A stretch of 42,908 bases of DNA from an uncultured Gammaproteobacteria bacterium. GTDB taxonomy: Bacteria; Patescibacteriota; Microgenomatia; JALYQM01. Positions 14,273 through 38,665 of this stretch are shown piece after piece (the stretch's first letter is position 1; every line of letters starts with the position of its first letter). Below the pieces are notes generated by a model. It was not told the DNA's origin. It did not search any database and saw nothing but the letters and a program-made list of their open reading frames with translations. The DNA lies in the NCBI GenBank assembly GCA_964403585.1, contig CAYOFQ010000001.1:398456-441363 (forward strand). Reading direction: 5' to 3'. Position numbers and translations under genes: made by a program.

Positions 14273-15484
14273 ATGAAAAAACTTCTCACCGTAATCTGCG
14301 CTATGGTATTTTTATTCGCCGGAACACCTGCTGCAGCACAAACGTATCCGACAGAATATCTTTCGGCAACCGAGTCGGCCGAAATGGAAGCTCAGGTTCC
14401 TGATGTGTTCCCTAAAGATGAGTATTACCGGGGAAAAATCATTTCTGCGGGTAAAGATGTGGTCAGTGAATTTCAAGGATATAAATCAGTAACCCAGGAT
14501 ATGACGGTAAAGTTACTGGACGGACCGGAAAAAAATAAAACTATCCAACTGAAATACAATCAGCTCCTGAATAAAGATAATATTGTGCGGCCGAAAGTAG
14601 GCGATACCGTGGTTATCACCAAATCAACACTTGGCGATGAGCCGGTCTATGTTATCAGTGATAAATACCGACTTGATACCATCAGTTACCTGTTAATAGC
14701 ATTTTTTATTATGGTGATTATTTTCGGACGCTGGAAAGGTCTTACTTCAACGGTTGGTTTGGGCGTCAGCATACTAATCATTGTTTATTTTATAGTGCCA
14801 AAAATAGTCAGCGGTAGTAATCCCTTTGTTATTACTATGATCGGAATCTTGATTATCAGTTTTACGTCATTGTATCTGGCGCACGGCTTTAATAAACGTA
14901 CAACTATCGCCCTGATCGCTACCTTAATTACGCTTGGACTCTCGATCCTGCTTGCGCGACTAGCAGTTGATCTGACGCAACTCAACGGATTAGGCAGTGA
15001 AGAAGCAATGTTTTTACAGGCCGGGGTGTTAGGGAGCCTTAATTTGAAAGGACTGTTATTGGGTGGAATTCTTATCGGTACCCTTGGCGTACTGGATGAT
15101 ATTACCACCAGTCAATCGGCAGCCATCGATGAAATTAGTAAAGCTAACCCGTCCCTCAAATTTGGTGAACTCTACGAACGGGGATTAAGTGTTGGACACG
15201 AACATATTGCTTCACTAGTTAACACGTTATTCTTAGCCTATGCCGGCGCTTCATTACCACTATTTATTTTGCTCTCTCAGGCGCATGGTCAACCGATGTG
15301 GGCGGTGGTCAATAGTGAACAGTTTGTCGAAGAAATCGTTCGGACAATCGTTGGGAGCATTGCGCTCATCTTGGGAGTTCCAATCTCTACGCTGCTCACC
15401 ATTTGTCTTTCACTCATAGAAAAATCGTCTTTTAGAGCGATAAATGGAGCTAATTGTGGTGTTCCAGAACTCAATTCTTCATAG
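14273..15484 (+). CDS. YibE/F-family membrane protein, 3' end remodelled by the island junction
   Basis: Signal peptide, a soluble domain, then about 7 TM helices typical of YibE/F. The last roughly 6-25 codons lie in AT-rich junction sequence and overlap the recombinase ORF in antisense. Confidence 0.75.
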   Translation: MKKLLTVICAMVFLFAGTPAAAQTYPTEYLSATESAEMEAQVPDVFPKDEYYRGKIISAGKDVVSEFQGYKSVTQDMTVKLLDGPEKNKTIQLKYNQLLNKDNIVRPKVGDTVVITKSTLGDEPVYVISDKYRLDTISYLLIAFFIMVIIFGRWKGLTSTVGLGVSILIIVYFIVPKIVSGSNPFVITMIGILIISFTSLYLAHGFNKRTTIALIATLITLGLSILLARLAVDLTQLNGLGSEEAMFLQAGVLGSLNLKGLLLGGILIGTLGVLDDITTSQSAAIDEISKANPSLKFGELYERGLSVGHEHIASLVNTLFLAYAGASLPLFILLSQAHGQPMWAVVNSEQFVEEIVRTIVGSIALILGVPISTLLTICLSLIEKSSFRAINGANCGVPELNSS

Positions 15485-17061
15485 GTAGGTGCCATCTGGA
15501 AAATGAGGCTGAAAAAGGTAGCTCTTTTGACTGAATCAGAGCCATTTAGCAACAAATCTTCAAGGTGTTCCAGAAAATATTTAACGGTCTCTGTTACCTC
15601 CACTATATCTATTGCCTTTTGCTTCTTTTTTAGCTTTTCCTCTTGTAGCTGAGCTATCTGATCCTCAATTTTTTCTAAATCTTCTTCCATATACTTAATA
15701 GCGGTTTCAGATGTTAAAACTCTTATCTTGTCTGCTATTAAACGGCCAGAGGTTTGCAGCTCCTTCATCTTAGTCTCAATGATTTCATTATCTTTATTCA
15801 TATTTGCTTGTCTCTTATCCCACTCTTCCAGAACTGCTTTCATTAACTTTTCTGCATATTTAGGAGTTATGTGTAAGCCTTTAACAAAACTAAGGATTGT
15901 TTGATCGAAATCTTTCTTTGATACCCGGAAATAGTGTCCACGTTTATTACAGTGATAAGCGGGATAGTATTTGCCTAGCTTTCCCCTCGAAGCACTGCCA
16001 AAAAGCGGTTTTTCACAATGAGGGCACATTACATAGCGTTTATATGGAAAATCAGGGTTTCTGACACCTTTTTTAAGCAAGTGCTCAGGAGGTCGTTTTT
16101 TATAAAACTTAATTTCACCATCCTCTTCGGTAATTGTTCTTTTATCTTTATTTGCTTTATTGAAAGTGTCTATGCTTACTAAACCTTCAAATTTACCTTT
16201 AATTGGCTGCCCTTCAGTCCAACGCTCAATATTAATTCCTGCATAAATAGGATTTTCGACAAATCTCAAAAATTGTTTTAGATTAAGAGGATTTCCGCCA
16301 CTTTTACCTATTACTTGTTTCTTATCCTGCTTACTTCTTATGAGTTTAGTTCTTGTTTTAAATCCAAGATTGTTTAGTTCTTCAATAATTTGTGAATCAT
16401 CCATTGAACCTCGGATACGCAGTTGAAACATCTTTCTTATCCAATCTGCTTCTTCTGGGTGAGGTGCTAAGATAACTCTTTTACCATGATCAGTTTCAAC
16501 CTTTTGATTAACATATCCAAATGGTGCCTGTCTGACTCTATAACCTAGTCTTACGTAACGGATCTCAGCTCCAATCATACGGGTCATGATATCTCGCATC
16601 TCATCTTTAGCTCGTTCAGCTTCAAGGATTTCAGCTTTTTTAGTTGGACTATACACACTCCAGTCGTAAGTTACATTTAGATGCTCCAAGGTATTAACTT
16701 GTTGAGTGCCAATAATGCCATATATATCAACTAACTTAACTCCATATTTGGTAAGTTGCATTTTTAAAAGATCGTATGAATATGATCCACCTCTAGTAAA
16801 ACGGTCAATAGATTTGATAATAAAGAGCTGAATGTCGTTTTTAGGATTTTTACAGTAATCAATAGCCTCTTGAACTGGTTGCTGTTCTTTAGAAGCTGAT
16901 TCCATGAAAACAAAAAATTTCTTGATATGTATGTTATGGGTCTGTGCGAAACGTTCGATTTGTTCTTTTTGCGCTTCAGGAGAATCACCTTGAAGACCTT
17001 GTTTAATAGAAGATACTCTTATTGCGGCTACTGCATTTTCTTGTATAGATAGGTTATTCAT
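15289..17061 (-). CDS. large serine recombinase (integrase)
   Basis: Resolvase-type N-terminus with AAIRVSSIKQ (catalytic Ser) and IKSIDRFTRG. A recombinase domain follows, then zinc ribbon CPHCEKPLFG..YHCNKRGH and a coiled coil (MKELQTSGRLIADKIR..LEKIEDQIAQLQEEK). The last roughly 57 codons are antisense to the yibE/F-like gene. Confidence 0.9.
   Translation of the reverse strand: MNNLSIQENAVAAIRVSSIKQGLQGDSPEAQKEQIERFAQTHNIHIKKFFVFMESASKEQQPVQEAIDYCKNPKNDIQLFIIKSIDRFTRGGSYSYDLLKMQLTKYGVKLVDIYGIIGTQQVNTLEHLNVTYDWSVYSPTKKAEILEAERAKDEMRDIMTRMIGAEIRYVRLGYRVRQAPFGYVNQKVETDHGKRVILAPHPEEADWIRKMFQLRIRGSMDDSQIIEELNNLGFKTRTKLIRSKQDKKQVIGKSGGNPLNLKQFLRFVENPIYAGINIERWTEGQPIKGKFEGLVSIDTFNKANKDKRTITEEDGEIKFYKKRPPEHLLKKGVRNPDFPYKRYVMCPHCEKPLFGSASRGKLGKYYPAYHCNKRGHYFRVSKKDFDQTILSFVKGLHITPKYAEKLMKAVLEEWDKRQANMNKDNEIIETKMKELQTSGRLIADKIRVLTSETAIKYMEEDLEKIEDQIAQLQEEKLKKKQKAIDIVEVTETVKYFLEHLEDLLLNGSDSVKRATFFSLIFQMAPTYEELSSGTPQLAPFIALKDDFSMSERQMVSSVEIGTPKMSAMLPTIVRTISSTNCSLLTTAHIG
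15458..15466. repeat. candidate attL core (GGTGTTCCA)
   Basis: The identical 9-mer recurs at 38657-38665, exactly where composition returns to host-like. The expected number of chance 9-mer matches between two 100-bp windows is only a few percent. Confidence 0.45.
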
Positions 17062-17222
17062 GCTCTATTCACTGAATTCGTAATGTACTTTTCTATAAGC
17101 CTATCAAGTATGAGATTAGCTAATACTTTGAGTCTTTCTTCAGTGTTTAATGGAGAAGTAAGAGGACGTTTTTTATCTTGTTTTAGGGAGTGTATTTTAG
17201 ATGGTAAATTAGTCTTTTTCAT
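17058..17222 (-). CDS. small basic protein (54 aa) translationally coupled to the recombinase; candidate directionality factor or regulator
   Basis: Hand translation gives MKKTNLPSKIHSLKQDKKRPLTSPLNTEERLKVLANLILDRLIEKYITNSVNRA. GAGGT lies 8 nt upstream of the ATG. Its TGA overlaps the recombinase ATG (ATGA). It is below the ORF-track size cutoff. Confidence 0.5.
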   Translation of the reverse strand: MKKTNLPSKIHSLKQDKKRPLTSPLNTEERLKVLANLILDRLIEKYITNSVNRA

Positions 17223-17257
17223 ATCAAATTACCTCATTAAACTATGCGTATAATGAT

Positions 17258-17286
17258 AGTTTATATCAATATATTGATAGTGTCAA
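17258..17286 (-). promoter_or_regulatory. candidate promoter of the small-ORF/recombinase operon with a 16-bp perfect palindrome in its spacer
   Basis: Minus strand: TTGACA(17286-17281)-17 nt-TAAACT(17263-17258). The spacer contains TATCAATATATTGATA (17264-17279), a perfect palindrome. Further TATCAA/TGTCAA half-sites lie nearby. Confidence 0.45.
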
Positions 17287-17313
17287 CAGTAAATGAGATG
17301 TTATACTTTCTTT

Positions 17314-17538
17314 ATGCAACAGGCTGAACAAAATAAGGCAAGAGAGACAATTGGAAGTAGAATAAAAGCTGTACGTGAGGCTAAAAATCTCACTCAGACC
17401 GAAGTAGCAGATAAAGCTGGAATCAATGTAAACTACTTTGCAATGATTGAAAGAGGTGAAACTAACTTTACATTCGATAAGCTATTTAGAATAATAAAAG
17501 CCCTTAAAATAAAATCCTCTGAAATATTACCCTTCTGA
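17314..17538 (+). CDS. XRE-family helix-turn-helix transcriptional regulator
   Basis: IKAVREAKNLTQTEVADKAGINVNYFAMIERGE is a classic Cro/CI HTH. ATG 17314 is preferred because TATACT at 17302-17307 lies 6 nt upstream. The track's start is 17293. Confidence 0.8.
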   Translation: MQQAEQNKARETIGSRIKAVREAKNLTQTEVADKAGINVNYFAMIERGETNFTFDKLFRIIKALKIKSSEILPF

Positions 17539-18147
17539 TAATAAATGCTTAGTAATATTCCCTGAATAGATAGTCATTGCTGTGGCAATATTTATCATAT
17601 GTTCAACTGAGATAATTTGCACATTACAAGCACCTTCAACAGTCATAGTTGAAACTGGTACAACCTCATCGAATAGCGGCCTCACTGTTAAAATATTTTG
17701 TCTTGCATCGTAATCCAGAGACTTTTCAGCTTCTTCAAGCATATACAGTGACTCCATAAACGCTGGGTGCTTTTCGGCAACATGTTCCAATGGTGGATAA
17801 GCGACCCCTCCAGTTCTCAGCCTTCCACAAACATTAACAACTTTATGTAAATCATTCTGCCTTTGTGTAAAAGCATTTATCACAGCGCTTCCTCCCGCAC
17901 TTGTTCCAATAAGCGAAACTCTTCTACCCTCTTTTGTTAACGAATCAATTCTCGTTAAAAACCTTTCTAATTTAGGCTGAAAAGTTTGCTCATTACCTGA
18001 CCAGGGCATAACATGCGGTTGAAGGTTTATACCATATTTTTGTGCCCAATCCCTCGCCATCCATTCGAGCCAATTGGTCCTATCTCCCAGGCCTGGAACA
18101 ATTAAAACTTCATGATCAATTTTTGATGATTCCTTTGAAGGTACCAT
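17527..18147 (-). CDS. alpha/beta-fold serine hydrolase
   Basis: Nucleophile elbow GTSAGGS (GxSxG) in a 206-aa ORF, with an LIVPGLGD N-terminal strand. The substrate is unknown. Confidence 0.6.
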   Translation of the reverse strand: MVPSKESSKIDHEVLIVPGLGDRTNWLEWMARDWAQKYGINLQPHVMPWSGNEQTFQPKLERFLTRIDSLTKEGRRVSLIGTSAGGSAVINAFTQRQNDLHKVVNVCGRLRTGGVAYPPLEHVAEKHPAFMESLYMLEEAEKSLDYDARQNILTVRPLFDEVVPVSTMTVEGACNVQIISVEHMINIATAMTIYSGNITKHLLSEG

Positions 18148-18149
18148 AA

Positions 18150-19118
18150 CTACTTCCAGATTGAATTAGTATACTGTAAACCACGCCTACCTAAATCAAG
18201 CCATAATTCATTTTCGCTTGAACTATTGCCCATTACTTTCTTTTGATGATTTGGCAAAACAATATGCATAGCATGCGCAACCTTTGTATACAGTGGCAAG
18301 GCAGCTAATTCAGCATCCATTAACTTAATCAATTTCTGATATTCCTTTAAACATTCTTCATATAGATATGGAAAGTTTGAAGGATCTTTTTCATTGAAAA
18401 AAAGGTCACATAATAAAACTGCCAATTCCTGAATTCTTGGATAAACATTTGAGACTGAGAAATCAATAATGTAAATTTGTCCGTTTTCAGCCCTTATAAC
18501 GTTAGTCTTAATAATATCTCCATGAACAAAAGTCTTTGGTAATTCTTCTAAATTAAGTTTGCTAAACTGATCAGCTAGTGGGGCAACCATTTCATAGTCA
18601 TCTGGGTCTAAGTATGATTTCTTGCTCTCAAATTCACTCAAAAAGTTTGTACATGCCCAATCGTCATAAATAGGTGTCGGTTTTATATTTAATTGATTAA
18701 TCATTGCTGCCTGCCTTGTTATAAACATTAATTCTTCAAAAGTAGGTTGCTCATTTAAAGAATAAAAACTTGAACCTTGAATAAATTGCAGAACACATAA
18801 TCTAACACTTGCTTCATTTAAGGTGATTTCATGCAGCGCTTCATCATCGGAAGTAAAAACCCTAGGATGAGCAATACCTGCTTCCATTACATTTTGCATT
18901 ACATCTACATATCTTTGACAATCTTCTGGGGTTCTAAACGTGTTAAAGGCTTTAACCAAATATTTGCCAGTATTGGTGTCTAGGACTATATTTAGATCCT
19001 CATAACCTATAGGGATTATAGAGTGTGACTGATATTCACCTAAATCGTAATCTTTAGTTACTTGGTGTAATAGCGGAGGTAATTCGCCATGATAATCAAT
19101 TCTTTCTTGGAAGTTCAT
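18150..19118 (-). CDS. aminoglycoside-phosphotransferase (APH)/choline-kinase-family small-molecule kinase
   Basis: Catalytic loop FVHGDIIKTNVI (HxDxxxxN) and IIDFS (DFG-like). Length 322 aa. Confidence 0.75.
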   Translation of the reverse strand: MNFQERIDYHGELPPLLHQVTKDYDLGEYQSHSIIPIGYEDLNIVLDTNTGKYLVKAFNTFRTPEDCQRYVDVMQNVMEAGIAHPRVFTSDDEALHEITLNEASVRLCVLQFIQGSSFYSLNEQPTFEELMFITRQAAMINQLNIKPTPIYDDWACTNFLSEFESKKSYLDPDDYEMVAPLADQFSKLNLEELPKTFVHGDIIKTNVIRAENGQIYIIDFSVSNVYPRIQELAVLLCDLFFNEKDPSNFPYLYEECLKEYQKLIKLMDAELAALPLYTKVAHAMHIVLPNHQKKVMGNSSSENELWLDLGRRGLQYTNSIWK

Positions 19119-19198: not shown

Positions 19199-21796
19199 AT
19201 GTTGAATACTCTGGATTTATCGAATTTGTTTCCATCTTATTTAAATATCGAAACCTTAACCCTTGTCCTCACATCTCTCATAGTATATTTACTATTCACC
19301 TTAGTTTTAAAATCAATTAGCTTAAGACTATATTTTGCAAAGCAATATATTTTCCTTGAAATCAAACCAACTGACCGAACTTTAAAGACAGCATTTACTA
19401 CAACTCAATTATTTATAATGCTTCATTCATTAGAGACACCATATTCTTGGTGGGAGAAGTTTATACAGATCAGGAAAAATATTAGTTACGAACTAGTATC
19501 AACAAAGAACGAAGGGATACGATTTATTCTACGTGTACCTAAGGAAAACTCTTCCAGTATTAGAAAAGCCTTATTAGCTTATTTACCAGGAATTGAGATA
19601 AAAGAGGTTAATGATTACCTTCCCAACACGACAGATACTTCCTCAGTCATACGAGAGTTCACTTTAAGTAATTTATTTGTCTATCCGTTATCGAAACAAG
19701 AAACATTGAATCAATATGACCCACTTGCGTACTTAACCGCCCATATGACTAAGTTGCAGGTAAATGACCTCATAATGTTACAGTTCACTAGCATTCCAAT
19801 ACACGAAAGCACACATGCGAGCAAAGCAGATTATATTAATTCCTTAAAAAAGAAATTATTAAATAATGAAGATATTTCTGATTTATTAGTAAGAAGCAGC
19901 TTCAGAAGAGTGATAGATCTTATCGCTAGCTCAATCTTATTTATCGTACTTACTCCAATAACTTTAGTTTCATGGCTGTTCACTAATACAAAAGACCCTT
20001 TTCCCTCTTGGGTGTTTGAAAGTGTGAACAAGAGAACTCAAAAAGATTTAGGAGAAGTCAAACGTGAGTTATACGAAAATATTGGAGATAAACTTAGTCA
20101 GCCACTTTTTGAAAGTAGAGTTAGTGTTTTCATTAGCATTTCCAACAAGGAAAATGCAATTGAACGTTTGCAAGGGATCAAATCCTCCTTTGACACTTTT
20201 TCTTCATCACACCAATCCCTCAAATTAAAAACTTCAATTTCCAATATTCTAAAAAGCAATTTACTCAAGAACTTAGATTATTTCTTTTTGAAAAAGAGAT
20301 TTTCATTTTTTGAAAGTAATACAATTCTGTCGGCTACAGAATTATCGTCTTTATTTCACCTTCCCTACACCAGCACAACTAAAACCGAAGACTTACTTCA
20401 GGTTAAAAGTCCTAAATTACCAGCTCCCATTTCTCTAAAGAAATCTGATTTAGAGCTTGATATTACGTTTGCTCATAATACTTATGGCGAAACAACTACC
20501 CCGATTGGGTTAACTCTAGAGGAGAGGAGACGTCACGCTTATATTATTGGTGCTACTGGTACAGGAAAGACTACACTCCTATTACAAATGATTAATCAAG
20601 ATATAAAAAAAGGTAATGGGATTGCAGTAATTGATCCTCATGGTGATTTGGCCGAAAGATTGCTTGAAGTTATTCCTAAAGAACGAATCAAAGATGTTGT
20701 TTACTTTAATCCTTATGATGTTGAGTTTCCAATTGGGCTAAATGTTCTGGAAATACCAGAAGGATTATCTAATGTCGAACTACAACGGGAAAAAGACTTT
20801 ATAACCTCAACACTAATATCAATATTCCACAAGCTCTATGATGCCAGATATTCGGGACCAAGAATGGAACATATATTGAGAAATGTTATTTTAACTGCTC
20901 TTGAACAAGAAAAACCAACACTTTTCACTATCTACAATTTGCTAACTAATACCAAATATAGAAAAGATGTAACAAGTCTATTGAACGATGAAATTTTAAA
21001 GACTTTTTGGAAGAATGAGTTCGAGAAGCTTGGTTCATTCCAAAAAGCTGAACAAATATCTCCCATTACAAATAAACTAGGAAGATTCTTAACTACCGGA
21101 ATGACGAGAAATATCCTTAACCAGACTGAGAGTAAACTTGATTTTGAAGATATTATGAATGGTCGAAAAATTCTTATATGTAACTTATCTAAAGGTAAAA
21201 TTGGAGAAGATACAGCTTATTTCTTGGGTGGACTTCTAACTGCCAAGATACAACTTACTGCATTACGCCGAGTACATGTGCCAGAAAAAAAGAGAACGGA
21301 CTTTTTCCTATACATAGACGAGTTTCAAAATTTTGCCACAATGTCTTTTGCTCAAATACTCTCAGAAGCTAGAAAATATAGGTTGAGTGTTATCCTAGCT
21401 CATCAGAATACTGTACAGATAGAGAATGATCTTCTAGAAACAATTATTGGTAATAGCGGTACTCTTATTTGTTTTAGAACAACGAGCCCGAAAGATGAAG
21501 ATAAACTATTACCTGTTTTTTTACCCGAAGTAGAAAAAGGTCAAATGGCTAATATCCCTTCCTACAATTTTTACATGAAGATAAATGCTATCCAGCCTCA
21601 ATCTACTTTTAGTGGAGAAATAGAAAATTTCGTTATACCTTCAAATGAAGAAGTGAGAAGAGAAGTAATTAAACACTCACAAACAAAGTATGGTCAAACG
21701 CCAAAACCTCTACATGCAAAAAATAAAACTTCCACTGAAAAAGTTATCACAAAAATTGATAATACAGCAAATTTATTTGAGCAAATAAGACCCTAA
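19199..21796 (+). CDS. type IV secretion coupling protein (VirD4/TraG/TraD-like ATPase)
   Basis: N-terminal TM segments, Walker A IIGATGTGKTTLL, DPHGDL, Walker B FFLYIDEFQNF and ILAHQN. Confidence 0.8.
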   Translation: MLNTLDLSNLFPSYLNIETLTLVLTSLIVYLLFTLVLKSISLRLYFAKQYIFLEIKPTDRTLKTAFTTTQLFIMLHSLETPYSWWEKFIQIRKNISYELVSTKNEGIRFILRVPKENSSSIRKALLAYLPGIEIKEVNDYLPNTTDTSSVIREFTLSNLFVYPLSKQETLNQYDPLAYLTAHMTKLQVNDLIMLQFTSIPIHESTHASKADYINSLKKKLLNNEDISDLLVRSSFRRVIDLIASSILFIVLTPITLVSWLFTNTKDPFPSWVFESVNKRTQKDLGEVKRELYENIGDKLSQPLFESRVSVFISISNKENAIERLQGIKSSFDTFSSSHQSLKLKTSISNILKSNLLKNLDYFFLKKRFSFFESNTILSATELSSLFHLPYTSTTKTEDLLQVKSPKLPAPISLKKSDLELDITFAHNTYGETTTPIGLTLEERRRHAYIIGATGTGKTTLLLQMINQDIKKGNGIAVIDPHGDLAERLLEVIPKERIKDVVYFNPYDVEFPIGLNVLEIPEGLSNVELQREKDFITSTLISIFHKLYDARYSGPRMEHILRNVILTALEQEKPTLFTIYNLLTNTKYRKDVTSLLNDEILKTFWKNEFEKLGSFQKAEQISPITNKLGRFLTTGMTRNILNQTESKLDFEDIMNGRKILICNLSKGKIGEDTAYFLGGLLTAKIQLTALRRVHVPEKKRTDFFLYIDEFQNFATMSFAQILSEARKYRLSVILAHQNTVQIENDLLETIIGNSGTLICFRTTSPKDEDKLLPVFLPEVEKGQMANIPSYNFYMKINAIQPQSTFSGEIENFVIPSNEEVRREVIKHSQTKYGQTPKPLHAKNKTSTEKVITKIDNTANLFEQIRP

Positions 21797-21841
21797 CCGA
21801 CTAGGGTAATAACTTGATAAATTAGATTGAAATAAAGGCAT

Positions 21842-21883
21842 TTCTTATTTAGAATATAGTCTCTATATTCTTATAAATAAGAA
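21842..21883. repeat. imperfect 42-bp inverted repeat (candidate oriT or operator)
   Basis: TTCTTATTTA-GAATATAG-tct-CTATATTC-tta-TAAATAAGAA. It lies between the coupling-protein stop and the relaxase-like gene, and no T-tract follows. Confidence 0.4.
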
Positions 21884-21940
21884 GAAAACTTATTTCCTCC
21901 ATAAGTTAAACGACAGGGAGGATATAGGTGGGTATAAAAT

Positions 21941-22643
21941 ATGATACTACCTACTATTACTAATAAACAGAAAGAAATACTCTTACTATTATATAGATTC
22001 AGATTCCTCAATCGCATCCAGATACAAAAGCTTCTCAAAAATAAAGACTACAAAAATATAAATGTATGGTTAAAGGATCTGACGGATAAAAATTACACTA
22101 AACGGATCTTTGAGAAGAAAGCAGGTATAAATCAGTCAGCTATATATTTTATTTCTAAAAATGGAATTAAGTTTTTTCGCTCGCATCCGGGATGCGAGGG
22201 AGAATATCTCAAGAAGTTATCTCAAGAAGTTATCTCAGGAGGGTAGAAGATCAGAAGTATTCATAAAGCAATGTATCTTAATTGCAGATATATACCTAAA
22301 GCTTCTAAATGAAAATGACCCTTCATTCAAATTCTATACACAGACCGACTTTCCAGTTAAGGGACTTATAAGGGATTTACTGCCAAGCTTTGCATTCATA
22401 AAACAAAAAAACACGAAAATCGAGCACTATACGTGCGAGATTTTAAAAGAAGGAATGCCACGATATGCTATTCGCGCCAGGATTCAAAAATATATAGAGT
22501 TCTTTGAAAGAAGTGATTCGAGAACTTATTTATATTTCTACTGTCCTAATCAGAAAATATTAGACTACACAAGAAAATATTCAGAAAACGCCGCAAACGA
22601 ACAGCAAGATCTGGAATTTTCATTTATCTTACTATCAGCCTAA
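21941..22643 (+). pseudogene. replication-relaxation (Replic_Relax)-family protein, frameshifted by a 13-bp tandem duplication
   Basis: The N-terminus KQKEILLLLYRFRFLNRIQIQKLL is a typical wHTH of this family. ORFs 21941-22246 and 22161-22643 join into one roughly 229-aa frame if one 13-bp copy is removed. Confidence 0.65.
22205..22237. repeat. perfect tandem duplication of TATCTCAAGAAGT (2 copies plus a 7-nt partial third)
   Basis: 22205-22217 equals 22218-22230, and 22231-22237 repeats the first 7 nt. The period of 13 is not a multiple of 3. Confidence 0.9.
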
Positions 22644-27421: not shown

Positions 27422-27514
27422 ATTATCTTTATTTAATAACCTCAATAAGATAAAAGATAACTTTTTCTCTTAATATAAATCTACACTACTAAAGCAAAAC
27501 TTTCCATATATGAA

Positions 27515-27897: not shown

Positions 27898-28182
27898 ATG
27901 GAAAACGGAATACCCGGATATGATGCCGCACAACCGATTCAGTTCTCGAATCTTGATAGTTTGTTATGGGGTATTGTTAAAACTCTTCAATGGTATTCAC
28001 TTCCCGTAATGGCAATTGCTATAGCAACTCTTGGCATCTTTTTAGTCATGAGTGGTGACGATACAGAAAGAAAATCACGATTAAAAGGCTGGATTATGAA
28101 TATCCTTATTGGAGGATTGCTCGTATTTGGAGCCTCATCATTAGCTCAAATTATTAAAACATTTGTCGGTGGAACAGTATAA
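27898..28182 (+). CDS. T4SS pilin-like protein (TrbC/VirB2-like)
   Basis: 94 aa with two hydrophobic helices (LPVMAIAIATLGIFLVM and IMNILIGGLLVFGASSLA) separated by a charged loop. It is the first gene of the T4SS operon. Confidence 0.6.
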   Translation: MENGIPGYDAAQPIQFSNLDSLLWGIVKTLQWYSLPVMAIAIATLGIFLVMSGDDTERKSRLKGWIMNILIGGLLVFGASSLAQIIKTFVGGTV

Positions 28183-28195
28183 CTCAAATCTATGC

Positions 28196-32849: not shown

Positions 32850-33608
32850 ATGAAGATTATCACTACGGTTAGAAACCTTCGTACAATAACAAATGATCCT
32901 TTTGGATTTATTATAGATACGCTCATTAAAATAGTAGTTAATCTTGTAATTCCCATTCCATTAGCAGGAAATGTAATCGCCAAGTTTAAACGACCAGTGC
33001 TAGGTTTTTTAGCTTCAATGGTGATATTAGGAGTCATGCTTTTTGTGATCTTGATTACGATATTTATATCAATCTTCTTATCTCCAACTGGTTTTTTCCA
33101 ATTCTTAACTGCTAGTGTTGCTCAATCCGCACTGAATAATGAGTTTATCCAGACAGTCGTGCCTGCACAAAACCCGTTAGGTGGACAAGGAATGTCGTAT
33201 ACTTCTATTACAGCTGGGTTTATGGATCCATCATATCTAATGCAGTTTGGTAAAAATCATACAGGAATAGATATGGTTCCTAATTCGACATACTATTCCA
33301 GTAGTTCAACATATCAGCAGGACAAGAAAATTACTATCTATGCAACGCACACAGGAAAAGCACGATATTATGTAGATTCAGATGGAGGAGAAACAGTAGA
33401 AGTATTAAGTAGTGCTGGAGATTTAAAAACAATCTATATCCATTTTAAAGAGGTATATGTAAAAACTGGTGATGATATCAAAGCAGGTACTCCGCTCGGC
33501 GAAATGGGAAACACTGGTTTTGCGACTGGAGAACATTTGCATTACGAAATACAACTTAAAGAGGGTAATAATTGGCGTCCAGTTAATCCGTTAACTTATA
33601 TAAAATAA
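32850..33608 (+). CDS. M23-family metallopeptidase (peptidoglycan hydrolase, VirB1 functional analogue)
   Basis: N-terminal TM helices, HTGIDM (HxxxD) and GNTGFATGEHLHYEI (HxH). Confidence 0.85.
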   Translation: MKIITTVRNLRTITNDPFGFIIDTLIKIVVNLVIPIPLAGNVIAKFKRPVLGFLASMVILGVMLFVILITIFISIFLSPTGFFQFLTASVAQSALNNEFIQTVVPAQNPLGGQGMSYTSITAGFMDPSYLMQFGKNHTGIDMVPNSTYYSSSSTYQQDKKITIYATHTGKARYYVDSDGGETVEVLSSAGDLKTIYIHFKEVYVKTGDDIKAGTPLGEMGNTGFATGEHLHYEIQLKEGNNWRPVNPLTYIK

Positions 33609-33612
33609 TAAT

Positions 33613-34080
33613 ATGAAAAAACTATTTAAAGACAATCCACTTTTTGTAACGTTTGTTATACCAATCATTGTTGATGTAGTAGGCACAGTGCTAGGCCAAC
33701 CACCAGAGTATTGGACTAGTGAAGGTAAAGTATTTAACGAATCGGTGCCATTTATTTACTTATTACTACAAATCCATCCATTGCTATTTATAACCATCTG
33801 TTTAGCTATTTGGTTACCATTTACTTATTGGTTAACAAAAAAATTAAAATCACCACTAAATCTTTGGGCAACAACGTCCTTACTTATAGGCCATGGTTAC
33901 AATAGTGTTTCATGGCTAAGAAAGGATCTTTATTATGCTGGTTTGTTTACTGGCGATAATCAACTATCACGAGCATTGTCTTTAATACCAGTGACAATTT
34001 ACATTTTATTTATTGGCTGGGTAGCCATGATGGGATTTGTTTCATATATCAAGTCAACAGCAAATCAAAAACAAATATGA
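33613..34080 (+). CDS. hypothetical polytopic membrane protein (T4SS operon)
   Basis: 155 aa with about 4 TM helices, co-oriented and tightly spaced. No motif recognised. Confidence 0.5.
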   Translation: MKKLFKDNPLFVTFVIPIIVDVVGTVLGQPPEYWTSEGKVFNESVPFIYLLLQIHPLLFITICLAIWLPFTYWLTKKLKSPLNLWATTSLLIGHGYNSVSWLRKDLYYAGLFTGDNQLSRALSLIPVTIYILFIGWVAMMGFVSYIKSTANQKQI

Positions 34081-34865
34081 AAGACATTCAATTAAATAAA
34101 TTAGACGCAAGTCAACGAAGATTACTCCAAACTGGAGTAATCTTAATTCTTTTAGTATTTTTAGGCTTATATTTCTTTTTTAATTGGAGAGATCAATCAC
34201 CTATTGGTAATAGCGAAATATATTTAGAAAACAACCAATTGCATATTTTCAATGATACCTACACCTTTAATGGCTATCCAGACAAGATACTCGTTCATTA
34301 TCCTTACTTGCTCTATGTACAAGGGAATAAACCATTAACCACTATTTACAACCTTGAAACTAAAGAGAAGGAAAAGGAAATTATTGAAGTACTTCTTGAT
34401 TACCATGACGGCAATATGGTCTATAACAAGAAAGAAACCTACTTTAACGATAAAAATTTAGGAGAATACTGCGATGCAGCATTTATTAAATCAGAAGAGA
34501 GTGTTTTATGTATAACAAAACAGTCACGTGATTTTGTAGATAACATGCTCATTGATATTAATCCTGATAAACCAAACCTTTGGGCAAGGATCTATAAGTC
34601 AGACAATGTATTAACTAATGTTTCCGTGATTAATGACAAGCTCTATGTAGGAGAAATTAACTTTGAGACAAAACAAAACTATCTTTCAATTGATCAAAAT
34701 GCTTTACCTGTAGAAAGTCCTGTGAGTTTGATTTACCAATTGGACAGTAAACCATATTTTGCTTCATTTAAGAGTGAATTAAATAACAATACAGCAAGCT
34801 ATTTTTTAGTTGAAGATGATAATATTGTCAAACAAGCCGATAACAAGATTTATTTTAGTCGGTAA
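34077..34865 (+). CDS. hypothetical single-pass membrane protein (T4SS operon; VirB8-like role possible by position only)
   Basis: ATGA overlap with the previous gene. N-terminal TM helix GVILILLVFLGLYFFF, then a 220-aa extracytoplasmic domain. No motif recognised. Confidence 0.5.
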   Translation: MKDIQLNKLDASQRRLLQTGVILILLVFLGLYFFFNWRDQSPIGNSEIYLENNQLHIFNDTYTFNGYPDKILVHYPYLLYVQGNKPLTTIYNLETKEKEKEIIEVLLDYHDGNMVYNKKETYFNDKNLGEYCDAAFIKSEESVLCITKQSRDFVDNMLIDINPDKPNLWARIYKSDNVLTNVSVINDKLYVGEINFETKQNYLSIDQNALPVESPVSLIYQLDSKPYFASFKSELNNNTASYFLVEDDNIVKQADNKIYFSR

Positions 34866-35580
34866 CCTCAGTATTGTTGATCACATCATATCTCACATGA
34901 AGGTATGAATTTTCTAAAACATCACATTTAACTAACTTTAACGGTCTAATCTTCTTAAGATCCTCTTGTTTGTGAAGCGATTCACCACCAATCAAACTTT
35001 GTGTATTTGAGCCTCCAATTAAGCATGGAGCTACAACTATTGAAACGTGATCTAGTAATCCTTCCCTTAACCAGTGAGAATTCATTGTCCCTCCTGATTG
35101 AATAGTTAACTTTTCAACTTTATATTCTTCTTTTAGCTTTCTCAGCATATCAGCCAAATCAACCTTATTTTCGTAGTAGATAATTTCAATATTTGAATAT
35201 TTGTCTTTCAAGCTGTAAGCAGGATGATTCTTATTTGTAGTTACAAGATAAAGTGTTTTTACCCACTTAGCAAGATAAGTAACCCCGTTTTTATTTAAGT
35301 GCGGTTTCGTATCAATAATCACAAAACTGACTTCCATTTTTTCAGGTTCTTTTGTTCGCTCGTTAATTCCTATCTTTGCCATAACTCTCCCTGTATTGAG
35401 AGAGAAAAGATCAGTTTGTTGTTCTAAATCATAATATTGATGAAGTCCTTCTTTTACACCAACTATTCTTTTGAAGTCTTTATCAACATCAAGTTCATCA
35501 TTATCTCCCGTGGTTATTTTGCCATCGAGAGACTCGATCATGAAAAGAGTTGTCTCGGGTCTATTTGTAGCGTTATTCAT
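34855..35580 (-). CDS. dihydrofolate-reductase-family/RibD C-terminal-domain reductase
   Basis: FMIESLDGKITTG and LTIQSGGTMNSHWLREGLLDHVSIVVAPCLIGG match the RibD_C pattern. Confidence 0.7.
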   Translation of the reverse strand: MNNATNRPETTLFMIESLDGKITTGDNDELDVDKDFKRIVGVKEGLHQYYDLEQQTDLFSLNTGRVMAKIGINERTKEPEKMEVSFVIIDTKPHLNKNGVTYLAKWVKTLYLVTTNKNHPAYSLKDKYSNIEIIYYENKVDLADMLRKLKEEYKVEKLTIQSGGTMNSHWLREGLLDHVSIVVAPCLIGGSNTQSLIGGESLHKQEDLKKIRPLKLVKCDVLENSYLHVRYDVINNTEVTD

Positions 35581-35587
35581 AAATAAT

Positions 35588-36295
35588 TTAGTTTGTAAGT
35601 ATTCTCTCTACAGATGAATCAGCCAAAATCTCCATAGAATCATAAATCTTAAAATCGGAATGACTAGGAGTTAAGAGTTGTAAATCTGTACAGGCAAGTA
35701 CTACAGTATGCACATCATGAACTCTAAAATTCTCTATTATCTTAAGAAGCTTAGCTTTATCTTCATCGCCATTTCTGCTTAACACCAATCTATTAATTAG
35801 TTCTCCTACTTCTAGCTGGTCATTTTCGTTTGGAAGCGCAACTTGTATATTTTTTGATTCTAGCGGTTTTTGGTACAGACCATGCTTTATAGTAGTTAAT
35901 GTAGCAAGTATACCTACCTTATCAATATTTTGTTCTTTCAAGAAATTAGCAGTCTCCTCAACAATGCTAAGAACTGGTATATTTACTGCTTTTCTTACTT
36001 CTTCAATAAATATATGGACTGAATTACATGGTATTACTAAAAAGTCAGCACCACCTGATTCTAATCGCTTAGCAGCTTCAACTAAGTAAGGAATGTATCT
36101 TTCTTCACCAATAGCAGATTGGATAAGATCATTCTCAATCTTATATTGCATTGGGATACTCCACATTAATATAGGAGGACGTTGTTCCTTATTTCTTTGA
36201 TAGCACTTAAAAATAAGTCTTAAGTAAAATTCGCTTGTGGTTTCAGGCCCTAATCCACCGATAATTCCTATTGTTTTCATATTTATATTATACAT
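35588..36295 (-). CDS. aspartate/glutamate racemase-family protein
   Basis: MKTIGIIGGLGPETT, with the two catalytic Cys contexts VIPCNSVH and VLACTDL. The start may be ATG 36280. Confidence 0.85.
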   Translation of the reverse strand: MYNINMKTIGIIGGLGPETTSEFYLRLIFKCYQRNKEQRPPILMWSIPMQYKIENDLIQSAIGEERYIPYLVEAAKRLESGGADFLVIPCNSVHIFIEEVRKAVNIPVLSIVEETANFLKEQNIDKVGILATLTTIKHGLYQKPLESKNIQVALPNENDQLEVGELINRLVLSRNGDEDKAKLLKIIENFRVHDVHTVVLACTDLQLLTPSHSDFKIYDSMEILADSSVERILTN

Positions 36296-36314
36296 CTGGG
36301 TATATAATTTCTAA

Positions 36315-37037
36315 ATGTATAAACCTTCTTTAAAGCTAGCAACGGTTCAATGTGCAGCTATTCAAGGCGACATAAATAAGGTAGTTAATCATATTTGCGA
36401 AACTCTTAAGTGGGCAGATAGTGAAAATATAGATATTATTAGTTTTCCCGAATGTTATTTACAAGGTTACTATCATGATAAGGAAACGATAAGAGAACAC
36501 GCTATTTCTCTGTCAGATACTAAGTTTATAAGTATTTTAAATCGACTGAAGCCTTTTAAAACAACAATCATACTAGGATTAATAGAATTAAAAAAAGACA
36601 AAATTTATAACACTGCTTTAGTGATAGAACAAGGCAAAATCATAGGCTTTTATAATAAAGCTCATTTAAATGAAACAAAATATACGGCTGGAACTGAATC
36701 GCCTGTTTTTAAGAAAAATGGAGTTACGTATGGAATAAACATTTGTAATGATGCTAATTATCCTGAGACCGCTGCAAAACTAAAATCTCAAGGTGCTGAA
36801 ATCATTTTTTATCCTCTCAATAACTTATTGCCAATTAAAGTTGCTGATGAGTGGAGAGAAAAAGCAGAAGAGATACTTATAATGCGTGCAAAAGAAAATA
36901 ACTGTTGGATTGTGTCATCTGATGTTGTCTACAAAGGAGAAGAACAGAAAAGTTTTGGCTGTACAGCAATAGTTAGTCCTACAGGTGAATTGATCAAAAG
37001 AGTTCCTGAGTTCAGTGAAGGAATTATTTCTATCTAA
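36315..37037 (+). CDS. carbon-nitrogen hydrolase (nitrilase superfamily)
   Basis: Glu-Lys-Cys triad contexts are FPECYLQGY, YNKAHL and INICNDANYPE. Confidence 0.8.
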   Translation: MYKPSLKLATVQCAAIQGDINKVVNHICETLKWADSENIDIISFPECYLQGYYHDKETIREHAISLSDTKFISILNRLKPFKTTIILGLIELKKDKIYNTALVIEQGKIIGFYNKAHLNETKYTAGTESPVFKKNGVTYGINICNDANYPETAAKLKSQGAEIIFYPLNNLLPIKVADEWREKAEEILIMRAKENNCWIVSSDVVYKGEEQKSFGCTAIVSPTGELIKRVPEFSEGIISI

Positions 37038-37061
37038 TATCACCTGATATACTTTGCCTAA

Positions 37062-37508
37062 ATGCTTATTTATTTTGCAGCTCCACTATTTTCAGAGGCT
37101 GAGAAACAGTTTAATTTATCGTTGACAAAAAAGCTTGAAGAAAAAGGATTTACTGTATTTCTTCCTCAAAGAGATGGGGTTGAAAGTGATAAACCTCAAT
37201 ATAAGGGTTTGTCCAAAGATGAAAAAAGAGAAATACTATTTAATATGGATAAAGAGAAAATATTTGAGTCAGATATATTCCTTTTTATATTAGATGGAAG
37301 AGTCCCTGATGAAGGAGCATGTGTTGAATTAGGAATAGCTTATACTCAAAAAGAGTTAGAAAAGAGAAAGAAGTTGTTAATTGGGTATATGACTGATACT
37401 AGAGCTGCATTTATCGGAGGAAAGTTAAATCCTATGGTAAAGATTCCATTAGGCAAGATCGTAGAAACAGAAGATGAGTTACTAAAATTTCTTAATGATT
37501 ATAAATGA
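37062..37508 (+). CDS. nucleoside 2-deoxyribosyltransferase-family protein
   Basis: MLIYFAAPLFSEAEKQFN and DEGACVELGIAY are typical of the family. Confidence 0.7.
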   Translation: MLIYFAAPLFSEAEKQFNLSLTKKLEEKGFTVFLPQRDGVESDKPQYKGLSKDEKREILFNMDKEKIFESDIFLFILDGRVPDEGACVELGIAYTQKELEKRKKLLIGYMTDTRAAFIGGKLNPMVKIPLGKIVETEDELLKFLNDYK

Positions 37509-37522
37509 GGTTTAATTAGTTT

Positions 37523-38089
37523 TTAGTGAGCAGCTTTATATCTCTTTACCTCATCAGTGTAAAATTCATTTTCTGCCAAGTAATCTAATAAATCACTTGT
37601 TTTCTCAATCGGATCACCATTTAGTTCAGTACAAAGTCTTGCAATCTCTAATCTATTGTCATCACTGTAGGAATATTCAATAACCCTGCCATCAGGCATC
37701 TTAAATATAAAGTTGATTAGATCATTCCCAACAAAATCATTCCAATATCCGTTATCTAATTTTTGTCGGATAAGTTCTTTATATGATTCAATTGCCGCTC
37801 CAGGAATAATCAGCTTTCTTGAAGTAGAATCTTCCTCTTGAGCAATATCGATTCCTAAATCCAAAAGCTCTCGATCAGTAATATTATTTGCTCCCATAAG
37901 GTAACTTCTATAGCTAAAATTTTCACCATCAACTTTTTCATGAGCAATCATATGTGCTGTAATTTGCATACCTTGAAGTAACTTAATAGCGTTTTCTCGG
38001 GTTGCTTCTTCAGGGCTTCTATTAGTTTGAAGGTAATTAATAGCTTTTTGAATGTCTGCTTCGGTGATTTCTGAGCTTTGTTTTGCCAT
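37523..38089 (-). CDS. hypothetical protein (downstream partner of the PLD-like nuclease)
   Basis: 188-aa acidic cytoplasmic protein that starts 16 nt after the PLD gene stop. No motif recognised. Confidence 0.5.
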   Translation of the reverse strand: MAKQSSEITEADIQKAINYLQTNRSPEEATRENAIKLLQGMQITAHMIAHEKVDGENFSYRSYLMGANNITDRELLDLGIDIAQEEDSTSRKLIIPGAAIESYKELIRQKLDNGYWNDFVGNDLINFIFKMPDGRVIEYSYSDDNRLEIARLCTELNGDPIEKTSDLLDYLAENEFYTDEVKRYKAAH

Positions 38090-38105
38090 ATTTTCTCCAA
38101 TTATA

Positions 38106-38582
38106 TCAAATAAGTACTTTAGGACTTATGAACTCAAGCATTTCTTGAACAGCCTGTTTATCGTGTATACGCCGCATAATTTCTCTACTTTGTGATTGGG
38201 AGAGGATATTCAAACTTCCTTCCCAAACAATATTCTCATCAATAACGGCAATTTTCCTATGGTGAAAACCTTTTAACAACTTTATATGTATACCCATTTC
38301 CTCGCAAAACAAAATTTCATTTGTTGCTTGATAGCGAATAACTTCGTCGTGTTCAGATGGATCTCTAGTAATAATTTGTATTTTTATTCCTTTATTTAAT
38401 AACCTTTGAAAGATTGGGATTAGCTTTTCCATTCGATTTGAAGTTATATAAGGACTTTCAATGATGACTCTTTCTCTACAATTTTCTAAATCTTTCAAAA
38501 AGTATTTATAGAAGTTTGTCTCATTAAAGAGTTTGGATGAGATGAATAAGCTCTTGGGCTGTTTAAAGAGAGGGAATATCAT
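38106..38582 (-). CDS. phospholipase D-family (single HKD) nuclease-like protein
   Basis: HKD motif HHRKIAVIDENIVWEGSLNILS (HxKx4Dx6GSxN). Only 158 aa, so it would need to dimerise like Nuc-type enzymes. Confidence 0.75.
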   Translation of the reverse strand: MIFPLFKQPKSLFISSKLFNETNFYKYFLKDLENCRERVIIESPYITSNRMEKLIPIFQRLLNKGIKIQIITRDPSEHDEVIRYQATNEILFCEEMGIHIKLLKGFHHRKIAVIDENIVWEGSLNILSQSQSREIMRRIHDKQAVQEMLEFISPKVLI

Positions 38583-38656
38583 TCTGATACCTCCTTTCTT
38601 GGATTTAAACCTAAAGCTTGTAGTTTATAATGTACCTCGATAAGATTATCAATAAA

Positions 38657-38665
38657 GGTGTTCCA
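38657..38665. repeat. candidate attR core (GGTGTTCCA)
   Basis: Direct repeat of 15458-15466. Sequence to its right is G+C-richer. Continuing the yibE/F frame from here gives 20 more open codons, ending at TAA 38726-38728. Confidence 0.45.

Follow-up and report, generated by a model that had tools for sequence, protein, structure and literature searches.

In the current analysis of a 42,908-nt stretch of contig CAYOFQ010000001.1, referred to as the window, an island of 23,287 bp (15398-38684) has been identified that is probably an integrated conjugative element (ICE) of a modular family widespread in metagenome contigs of the Patescibacteria or candidate phyla radiation (CPR) type. The family is apparently undescribed. 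The island lies in the 3' end of a host yibE/F gene upstream of msrB, and encodes a large serine recombinase (LSR), a VirD4-type coupling protein (T4CP), a broken relaxase gene and the operon of a type IV secretion system (T4SS). A preliminary description of this DNA had seen here a horizontally acquired integrative element with monoderm-type conjugation genes, and this core reading holds; the breakpoints and the completeness that it proposed are revised below. Coordinates follow the numbering of the window throughout, and L-numbers denote genome or metagenome loci fetched for comparison. Domains were assigned with Pfam, conjugation families also with NCBIfam, phage families with PHROGs and AbiE with PADLOC. 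Relatives of YibE/F were sought in a scan of one genome per species, and the protein search covered 5.8 billion proteins. The taxon labels of the host and of the relatives are those of the records of metagenome-assembled genomes (MAGs).

The island is foreign DNA. Its GC content is 34.2% against 43.7% in the flanks, and the GC values of 1-kb windows do not overlap, the highest in the island being 0.386 and the lowest in the flanks 0.397 (Mann-Whitney p=3.6e-8). The GC content at third codon positions (GC3) amounts to 26% across the 21 genes of the island and to 45% across 19 genes of the flanks. The drop in composition claimed in the preliminary description is significant in the windowed comparison that it had called for. 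The uninterrupted yibE/F-msrB junction, which it had proposed to seek in related genomes, is present in two loci with about 70% YibE/F identity (L001 and L002), where msrB follows yibE/F directly with stop and start overlapping as ATGA. Both loci are syntenic with the window on the two sides of the island site, in znuABC, zur, msrB and the genes of an MFS transporter and an Exo_endo_phos protein (54-88% identity), and none of the 18 island proteins tested was matched in these syntenic regions.

The junctions have been placed by comparison with uninterrupted relatives on the host side and with sister elements on the island side. The host part of yibE/F (14273-15397, plus strand) comprises 375 codons, and the Pfam family YibE_F is matched with 233 bits over profile positions 3-239 of 241. 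The protein is 69-72% identical to those of L001 and L002 up to residue 376, no relative being above 72%, and the homology to these two and to ten more relatives stops at ...GVPISTLL, that is at nucleotide 15397 and not at 15466. In blastn, the match to the sister elements L023 and L024 sets in precisely at 15396, and the left-end alignment with sister elements diverges after GGTGA. At the right end lies a conserved arm, GGTGTTCCACCTGAGACCCAGAGAGCTC (38657-38684), with the core GCTC at 38681-38684. Arms of the same layout occur in L105, L110, L030 and L093, and the right end of L018, matching as ..GGTGTTCCACCTGAG...CAGAGAGCTC, is nearly identical up to GAGCTC and then diverges (38684/38685). 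The left junction is thereby set at 15396/15397 and the right junction at 38684/38685.

On these alignments the crossover must lie within the GCTC shared by both junctions (15394-15397, with the host half-site GGAGTTCCAATCTCTACGCTGC to its left, and 38681-38684), most simply at the TC of 15396-15397. Serine recombinases exchange strands at a 2-bp core and make no 9-bp duplication, and a TC exchange fits such a 2-bp crossover. The island therefore has a site-specific recombinase at one end and attL and attR sites fixed to within 4 bp. The predicted recombination products are an attP of ..CAGAGAGCTCACCATTTGTC.. and an attB of ..CTACGCTGCTCGCCTCCTGG.., the longer targets being CTTGGGAGTTCCAATCTCTACGCTGCTCGCCTCCTGGTATTTTGGCAAACGATC for attB and CAATAAAGGTGTTCCACCTGAGACCCAGAGAGCTCACCATTTGTCTTTCACTCATAG for attP. 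Two other sequencing runs of the same population, assembled independently, contain the right junction with 100% identity, and hence it is not a chimera of one assembly.

When 15397 is joined to 38685, a YibE/F of 391 aa and of normal family form is restored, ending in the tail ASWYFGKRSANSPAKV and a stop. This tail agrees with STLLASWSFS, STLLAAWFFGR and STLLAAYVYGKRKA of the relatives. The displaced native 3' end (38685-38735, plus strand) consists of the 16 codons of ASWYFGKRSANSPAKV and a TAG stop at 38733-38735, and the present yibE/F reading frame extends to 15484 through 27 codons encoded by the element. The insertion thus exchanged 16 native codons for 27 foreign ones, leaving the Pfam domain intact to position 239 of 241, and msrB (38748-39152, plus strand; SelR 165.9 bits) was separated from its former translational partner. 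At the right end of the element a promoter-like TTTAAA-16-TATAAT (38604-38631, plus strand), a consensus match only, faces msrB. It might replace the lost co-transcription with yibE/F.

The preliminary description had drawn the breakpoints differently, at the 9-mer GGTGTTCCA, with the insertion between its copies as a 9-bp target duplication or att core, and an empty site in which yibE/F would continue into a 20-codon tail PETQRARLLVFWQTIRQFTG with its stop at 38726-38728. The 9-mer is indeed present at 15458-15466 and 38657-38665, and it is over-represented in the window, with six copies (9115, 12563, 15458, 15564, 26826 and 38657) against 0.34 expected. Its role as the breakpoint does not stand, and we consider the model refuted: sister elements in other hosts retain both copies, which are therefore element DNA (codons of the LSR on the left, the right-end arm on the right); the uninterrupted homology of YibE/F ends near 15397 and not at 15466; the tail PETQRARLLVFWQTIRQFTG is out of frame with the conserved tail of the relatives, giving 46 residues after STLL that match nothing; and serine recombinases, as is well established, use a 2-bp core without a 9-bp duplication. 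The GCTC junctions and the ASWYFGKRSANSPAKV tail therefore supersede the tidy empty site and the att sites given earlier. The first copy in the LSR gene encodes SGTP near the C-terminus of the protein, the copy in the arm lies within the small palindrome AGGTG-TTC-CACCT, and both are kept in sister elements. Read in the sense of the recombinase, TGGAACACC occurs twice in the 3' coding end of the LSR gene, in different frames, and once in the right-end arm. These copies may be protein-binding sites or a coincidence.

The LSR itself (15289-17061, minus strand), already recognised in the preliminary description at the start of the island, scores 40.1 bits on Resolvase and 27.0 bits on Recombinase, each above its cut-off. 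It has a candidate catalytic-serine motif RVSS at residues 15-18, and its translation shows a CxxC...HC motif as well as a coiled-coil-like stretch, as befits a member of the LSRs. A search of the PDB by sequence gave no match for it. Its gene is encoded by the element from 17061 down to 15398, and the last 36 codons are antisense to yibE/F. Its homologues at E <1e-20 number 1713, with identities of up to 77%, and 80 metagenome loci were fetched around such homologues. A short reading frame of about 50 aa overlapping the LSR start is conserved in the family. In the window it encodes 54 aa (17058-17222, minus strand) and shares the motif E(E/K)L(K/R)(V/I)(L/F)(A/T)NL(I/L)LD(R/Q/K)L with its equivalents in L023 and L024. 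Its product may be an accessory factor or a recombination directionality factor. In the predicted circle the LSR reading frame would be 589 aa long, and its TGA (38581-38579) would overlap the ATG (38582-38580) of the PLDc_2 gene situated at the other end of the island. Such an LSR-PLDc_2 operon with an ATGA stop/start overlap would exist in the excised state only. An equivalent arrangement is found in L093, where 10 nt separate the LSR stop from the PLDc_2 start, and L030 aligns continuously across the attP predicted from the two ends of the window's element.

The family to which this LSR belongs is normally directed to tRNA genes. The 3' end of the LSR gene abuts or overlaps an antisense tRNA 3' end in 68 of about 76 evaluable loci, the targets being tRNA-Glu and tRNA-Lys (18 each), tRNA-Gln (17), tRNA-Arg (7), tRNA-Ser (6), tRNA-Ile (1) and tRNA-Asn (1). 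Strand exchange falls on the two final base positions of the acceptor stem (..GGC-TC-ACCA); the discriminator base and CCA beyond it (ACCA after the TC) are provided afresh by the element. The window copy is an exception: its insertion site is a protein-coding 3' end that has the GCTCRCC core common to the tRNA-Lys-type site, together with a T-arm-like GATTGGAACTCC. A 24-nt matrix built from 23 tRNA-side half-sites, with one 1-nt deletion allowed at every position, ranks the real site 1st of 39,192 positions of the reconstructed host (13.65 bits, runner-up 10.07). There is moderate support, from sequence comparison, for the window copy occupying a secondary, tRNA-mimicking off-site target. ARAGORN detected no tRNA gene over the window and an Rfam scan of it gave no match.

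The coupling protein and the relaxase are encoded next to each other. The T4CP (19199-21796, plus strand) matches TrwB_AAD_bind (47.1 bits), DUF87 and TraG-D_C, has intact Walker A (GATGTGKT) and Walker B (DEFQ) motifs, and is syntenic with the LSR in more than 40 related loci. Its best matches among the conjugation families of NCBIfam are SXT_TraD and CD1115, both below cut-off. Downstream lies a gene of the Replic_Relax type (21941-22643, plus strand), a family which belongs to the MobC (MOBC) relaxase superfamily as PF13814 (PMC5357655). Pfam agrees with the preliminary description as to a VirD4-like coupling ATPase and a Replic_Relax-like putative relaxase; the toolkit that it called complete-looking was overstated, since the relaxase gene is split. 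A 13-bp TATCTCAAGAAGT stands twice in tandem at 22205-22230 and yields two reading frames of 101 and 160 aa (21941-22246 and 22161-22643), both of them with YLKKLSQE. With one copy of TATCTCAAGAAGT removed, a single reading frame of 229 aa results, which shows 60% full-length identity to the intact gene of L026. The protein so repaired scores 26.1 bits on PF13814 (cut-off 25.3) over profile positions 2-111 only, and its relatives in L064 and L031 score 49-51 bits over positions 2-185. In the region 22300-22450 the PDA(Y/F) of most relatives is replaced by PSFA in the subfamily of the window and L026, perhaps a change at a catalytic acidic residue of the nuclease-like domain.

Intact relaxase reading frames of 208-300 aa are present in 32 relatives, so that the family qualifies as conjugative in this respect and the window copy, lacking an intact relaxase gene, does not. 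The frameshift might be an assembly artefact, although a clean 13-bp tandem duplication is atypical of consensus error. No exact match to the proteins of the first relaxase reading frame and the T4CP is on record that would confirm the frameshift independently. Apart from the relaxase, every backbone gene is open, and both ATPases have Walker motifs. Because the relaxase is broken, the window copy is probably not self-transmissible as it stands; it is probably excisable, and might regain self-transmission if the duplication reverted or a relaxase were supplied in trans. Between the genes of the T4CP and the relaxase lie two AT-rich imperfect inverted repeats (21829-21896), I1 and I2, with 26-nt arms that are 73% and 18-nt arms that are 78% complementary. 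They are a candidate origin of transfer (oriT), unconvincing on their own.

The T4SS operon begins with a VirB2/TrbC-like pilin (27898-28182, plus strand; TrbC 34.1 bits, cut-off 27.9), which is 90-93% identical in L018-L022. It is followed on the same strand by a polytopic membrane protein of the VirB6/TrbL type with a hydrophilic C-terminal extension (28163-29938), whose TrbL match is weak (17.7 bits) and whose homologue in L018, 75% identical, carries a precomputed TrbL_3 match. A TrsD-like protein of 289 aa (29856-30725, plus strand) comes next, consisting of an N-terminal membrane hairpin and a domain resembling the N-terminus of VirB4; it matches positions 14-273 of the NCBIfam family of VirB4 Mbov_0397 with 49.7 bits, TrsD with 19.6 bits and, weakly, TraC_F_IV of Pfam. 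The VirB4 ATPase (30722-32845, plus strand; P-loop_TraG 87.6 bits, DUF87) has intact Walker A (GVSGSGKS) and Walker B (DEAH) motifs, and reaches 238.8 bits on CD1110 (cut-off 325) and 235.5 bits on Mbov_0397, both below cut-off. Directly downstream of virB4, as in every relative examined, is an M23 peptidoglycan hydrolase (32850-33608, plus strand; Peptidase_M23 62.1 bits), a functional analogue of VirB1.

The operon closes with a variable polytopic membrane protein of 155 aa and an N-terminally anchored protein of 262 aa (33613-34865, plus strand). The latter is encoded behind the M23 gene without exception, has identities of 44-68% in L018, L020, L105 and L107, and had no Pfam, NCBIfam, PHROG or significant PDB match; it is presumably a T4SS component. 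A VirB8-like identity of this protein was considered and rejected, as the PDB profile search was at chance level and a single-sequence AlphaFold2 (AF2) model had a predicted local distance difference test score (pLDDT) of 47 and was unusable. No VirB8-like protein has been identified in the island. The calls of VirB2, VirB6, a VirB3/VirB4N-like protein (here TrsD-like), VirB4, M23 and two XRE regulators made in the preliminary description all stand on Pfam and NCBIfam, whose T4SS profiles match the island proteins. A T4CP, VirB4 and further mating-pore genes are thus present, of which VirB6 is weak, and in its order of genes (VirB2-like pilin, VirB6, TrsD, VirB4 and downstream peptidase) the operon corresponds to the set of the Patescibacteria-clade T4SS.

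A common plan emerges from the related loci. At the left end are found the LSR, the small reading frame, an XRE regulator, the T4CP, the MOBC/Replic_Relax relaxase and sometimes AbiEii; in the middle a first cargo hotspot, an operon of VirB2, VirB6, the TrsD-like protein, VirB4, M23 and the 262-aa protein, and a second cargo hotspot; and at the right end PLDc_2. The LSR, sometimes the XRE regulator, the T4CP and Replic_Relax are syntenic, and the LSR, T4CP and relaxase occur together in 33 of the 80 loci. VirB4 homologues 84-92% identical to that of the window are seen in the contexts L018-L022, L105-L107 and L110, the last being a closed genome (CP065004.1), one of the contigs labelled Roizmanbacteria in which the operon occurs. 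All these contexts share the operon of TrbC/VirB2, VirB6, the TrsD-like protein (about 269 aa; 204 aa in L110), VirB4, M23 and a protein of about 262 aa. Variable defence cargo precedes it, made up of restriction systems (type I, II or III) or of HEPN, KAP or SMC-like genes, and a second variable cargo slot and then PLDc_2 come after it.

A second complete element of about 28.5 kb has been assembled from two loci. L026, with the gene order tRNA-Lys, LSR, XRE, T4CP, APH, relaxase and AbiEii, overlaps L105 at 100% over 4,059 bp. The right junction of this element reads ..AGAGTTCCACCTACGGGACAGTAGGC-TC-ACCAAAAAAG, with GGCTCACCA as the flanking sequence of the element. The host genes beyond nearly identical right arms differ, being msrB in the window and an Lnb_N gene in L018. 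In L018, the closest sister element with a VirB4 that is 92% identical, the stop of the Lnb_N gene (14716-15597, minus strand; TCA on the plus strand) coincides with the crossover, and this is possibly another insertion at a protein-coding 3' end.

Some members of the family are reduced or decayed. L041, at a tRNA-Gln, is a member of about 9.7 kb in which some 45 nt of the recombinase 3' end are repeated at the far end, ahead of the arm on the PLDc_2 side (1935-2010 and 11625-11668); the duplicate looks like a remnant or a tandem junction, and the member, devoid of T4CP and T4SS, looks like a mobilisable element. In L094 and L095 (about 4530-4690) the recombinase end adjoins a partial tRNA-like fragment, with a complete tRNA-Gln some 80 nt beyond, which suggests decay or serial integration at the same tRNA. 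Among the sister elements VirB6 is split in L020-L022 (7472-9217), PLDc_2 is split in L105 (20145-20836), and an IS200/IS605 Y1 transposase adjoins the right end in L020-L022.

The following mechanism emerges from these comparisons. The LSR recombines a chromosomal site, normally the end of a tRNA acceptor stem, with an attP that lies within the 3' coding end of its own gene; in the genome of the window a secondary site in the last 16 codons of yibE/F was used, uncoupling yibE/F from msrB. Excision by the LSR, perhaps with the 54-aa protein, would be under XRE control, and circularisation would fuse the LSR reading frame to the PLDc_2 gene through the ATGA overlap. A MOBC-type relaxase would nick oriT near the AT-rich inverted repeats (21829-21896), the T4CP would hand the DNA to a channel of VirB4, the TrsD-like protein and VirB6, the M23 hydrolase would help it through the wall and the VirB2-like pilin would act in contact, whereupon the element could re-integrate at a tRNA end. 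Integration at GCTC by the LSR and the exchange of codons in yibE/F are shown by comparison with relatives; the steps of transfer are inferred from the established roles of the gene families.

Several observations weigh against a conjugative element and are brought together here. No excised circle or empty site was seen for the strain of the window. No strain-level empty site was found among 5.8 billion proteins either, the best YibE/F apart from the window's own chimera being about 70% identical, and an exact match to the msrB protein is given by only two contigs, 100% identical to the window and both with the island. The DNA of the window is only 71-78% identical to the sister elements by blastn, so that a recent acquisition is not demonstrable. 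The attP-type junctions of L030 and L093 are either circular forms or tandem junctions, and could come from tandem elements rather than circles, a remnant junction being present in L041. The relaxase call is barely above the Pfam cut-off, in a subfamily with PSFA replacing PDA(Y/F). With regard to the target, an ungapped 32-nt matrix ranks the real site only 310th of 39,180, and the gapped matrix described above was devised after the offset had been seen. Lastly, no conjugation has been shown for any Patescibacteria T4SS, and published work favours a non-conjugative role related to epibiosis (PMC12102498; PMC12857230).

That published view leads to the most serious rival, according to which the T4SS serves the epibiotic or parasitic lifestyle in the exchange of effectors, nutrients or DNA with the host cell, and the island moves by other means or its T4CP and supposed relaxase act in replication or the like. 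The T4SS is essential for the epibiotic growth of a Saccharibacterium and the T4CP is not, most Patescibacteria T4SS clusters are without a detectable relaxase (PMC12102498; PMC12857230), and the island carries a large surface protein and salvage-type cargo and keeps its T4SS operon intact and its relaxase not. Against this, at least two complete elements, bounded by att sites, hold the operon along with genes for a T4CP and a MOBC-type protein, the module of T4CP, relaxase and LSR is the same triad as in streptococcal mobilisable elements (PMC5357655), and a VirB4 that is 84-92% identical in other contexts and hosts points to transfer. Roles in conjugation and in epibiosis are compatible. We hold this rival to be rather unlikely.

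It is more doubtful still, and in our estimate improbable, that two adjacent elements are present, a small mobilisable one (LSR, T4CP, relaxase and AbiEii) beside a separate island of T4SS and cargo. Small members lacking T4CP or T4SS do exist, as in the 9.7 kb from PLDc_2 to LSR of L041, most Patescibacteria T4CP genes are far from virB4 (PMC12102498), and the modules are separated by cargo that varies greatly. A single recombinase and a single pair of attL and attR are present in the island, though, the arm on the PLDc_2 side, which adjoins the T4SS, partners the LSR end in attP-type junctions, and L026 with L105 carries the same composite at tRNA-Lys. The serine integrase, the XRE repressors and the insertion of the family at tRNA genes would also suit a prophage or phage satellite, to which we give a negligible probability, since PHROGs gave no capsid, terminase, portal or tail match among 10 island proteins, including all those without Pfam annotation, and the core genes identified are those of a T4SS, a T4CP and a relaxase.

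The remaining genes of the proposed ICE are regulators, accessory genes and cargo. XRE regulator 1 (17293-17538, plus strand; HTH_3 50.8 bits) is divergent from the recombinase operon and keeps its position in L023-L027 and L039, and XRE regulator 2 (27515-27787, plus strand; HTH_3 56.5 bits) stands upstream of the T4SS operon. Between the first regulator and the T4CP are two accessory genes on the minus strand, for a possible alpha/beta hydrolase (17527-18147; Hydrolase_4, weak, 17.8 bits) and an APH-family kinase (18150-19118; APH 63.7 bits); APH-like genes recur in L023 and L026. Following the relaxase is an AbiEii-type nucleotidyltransferase with a C-terminal extension (22679-24079, plus strand; AbiEii 88.2 bits in Pfam and 170 bits in PADLOC). 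It is associated with the backbone, being 75% identical in the L026/L105 element by tblastn. The gene upstream of it is the relaxase, in which Pfam found no AbiEi antitoxin family, and the two do not form an AbiE pair.

The first cargo hotspot holds a secreted surface protein of 1120 aa with a C-terminal membrane anchor (24083-27445, minus strand), to which beta-helix, fn3 and CarboxypepD_reg domains are assigned by Pfam. It has no counterpart in the related loci, which hold restriction or defence genes at this place, and is regarded as variable cargo. The giant adhesin of the preliminary description is thus upheld as a large surface protein of this domain composition, and its role in adhesion would be an inference from these domains. 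In the second slot (34855-38089) Pfam identifies a RibD_C reductase (34855-35580, minus strand), an Asp/Glu racemase (35588-36295, minus strand), a CN_hydrolase (36315-37037, plus strand) and a nucleoside 2-deoxyribosyltransferase (37062-37508, plus strand), which are followed by an unknown protein of 188 aa (37523-38089, minus strand). Relatives carry other genes in this slot, such as thiol-redox genes and a deaminase. PLDc_2 (38106-38582, minus strand; 55.8 bits), a Nuc-like nuclease of the phospholipase D family, is the conserved terminal gene in L018, L020-L022, L105, L107 and L110, and stands directly after the LSR in L093.

Outside the island, a gene pair on the minus strand between zur and yibE/F (12727-14192), for a metallophosphoesterase and an NTP_transf_5/DUF2204 nucleotidyltransferase, has no counterpart in L001 and L002 where they are syntenic, which suggests that another, small indel adjoins the island. 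On the other side (39154-40806) a TfoX_N gene is not in L001 and L002, and the MFS transporter gene has an unusually high GC content (about 0.52, GC3 0.62), yet a syntenic orthologue of 68% identity in L002. Among the labelled relatives of YibE/F the nearest are MAGs labelled Peribacteria, with an identity of only 45-51%. A host of the episymbiont (CPR) type, the affiliation resting on these relatives and on a contig of 1.57 Mb to which the proteins map, is plausible.

The element shares features with several known systems. In NCBIfam, VirB4, the TrsD-like protein, the T4CP and the pilin-like protein all match best to the ICEs of the MPF_FATA type in Firmicutes and Mollicutes (CTn2, with CD1110 and CD1115, and the Mycoplasma ICE, with Mbov_0395 and Mbov_0397), which have likewise a monoderm toolkit without VirB7, VirB9 and VirB10. 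The scores of the window proteins on these families are all below the curated cut-offs, the type of integrase and the cargo differ, and the VirB2/TrbC pilin of the window passes its Pfam cut-off. Islands and ICEs that target tRNA genes with tyrosine integrases, such as ICEclc and the actinomycete ICEs (AICEs), for example pSAM2, are alike in inserting at tRNA 3' ends, in restoring the tRNA end from the element, in tandem accretion and in the occasional use of secondary sites; the enzyme of the window is instead an LSR that exchanges at a 2-bp core at the end of the acceptor stem. The targeting of tRNA genes is unusual for LSRs. A few tRNA-associated elements with an LSR are mentioned for the tycheposons of Prochlorococcus (bioRxiv 10.1101/2020.12.28.424599), so that such targeting is unusual and not unprecedented. 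The streptococcal IME_Class_8 elements (Coluzzi et al. 2017, PMC5357655) share a module of serine integrase, VirD4-type coupling protein and PF13814/MobC relaxase. They are mobilisable only and without a T4SS, in contrast to the element of the window and that of L026 and L105 with their own T4SS operon, and targeting of tRNA 3' ends and an att site inside the integrase reading frame are not reported in that paper as far as it was read.

Closest in its secretion genes is the Patescibacteria clade of T4SS (Quinonero-Coronel et al. 2025, PMC12102498), which is described as related to MPF_FATA, with abundant TrsD, VirB2-like pilins and a peptidase downstream of virB4. The window agrees with it in an apparently MPF_FATA-related VirB4 with a TrsD-like gene immediately upstream, in a VirB2-like pilin, unusual for a monoderm, in VirB6 and in the peptidase directly after virB4. 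It differs in being a delimited element with LSR, T4CP and a MOBC-type relaxase gene, and in having a single pilin gene and not an array. Integrases and att sites were not analysed in that study, and the systems were judged mostly relaxase-less, chromosomal and often near dnaA (PMC12102498). Current reviews rank the Patescibacteria T4SS with the most intriguing newcomers to the T4SS superfamily. One cultivated species needs it for epibiotic growth, and it is largely assumed to be non-conjugative because relaxases were rarely detected. The T4SS of Southlakia was reportedly treated by Wang et al. (2023). ICEs, LSR integrases, MOBC relaxases and Patescibacteria T4SS are each known, and we have not found their combination described; literature searches on Replic_Relax in Patescibacteria and on CPR conjugative elements with a serine recombinase found no papers.

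A broader proposition, which we advance tentatively and with less than even confidence, is that the pilin-bearing T4SS of Patescibacteria, or at least a large subset of them, could be the mating apparatus of an unrecognised self-transmissible family, whose divergent MOBC/Replic_Relax relaxases would largely have been missed by standard MOB screens, whose LSR clade would target tRNA 3' ends with attP in the LSR coding end, and whose circularisation would rebuild an LSR-PLDc_2 operon.

The same T4SS operon recurs in elements that have exact att sites and also encode an LSR, a T4CP and a MOBC-type protein, at different chromosomal sites and in CPR lineages of different label. Bounded elements like that of the window bear on the view of the Patescibacteria T4SS as largely relaxase-less and non-conjugative, and with them conjugation in the CPR becomes a testable question. 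The clade of tRNA-end-specific LSRs may also be of interest for genome engineering. For the genome of the window itself, the finding means an off-site and probably transfer-defective copy, with the tail of yibE/F altered and msrB uncoupled. For the family, it points to a likely route by which genes of defence and of nucleotide and amino-acid salvage spread among reduced genomes; if the proposal is true, there would be conjugation among ultrasmall episymbiotic bacteria, moving such genes between classes of the CPR.

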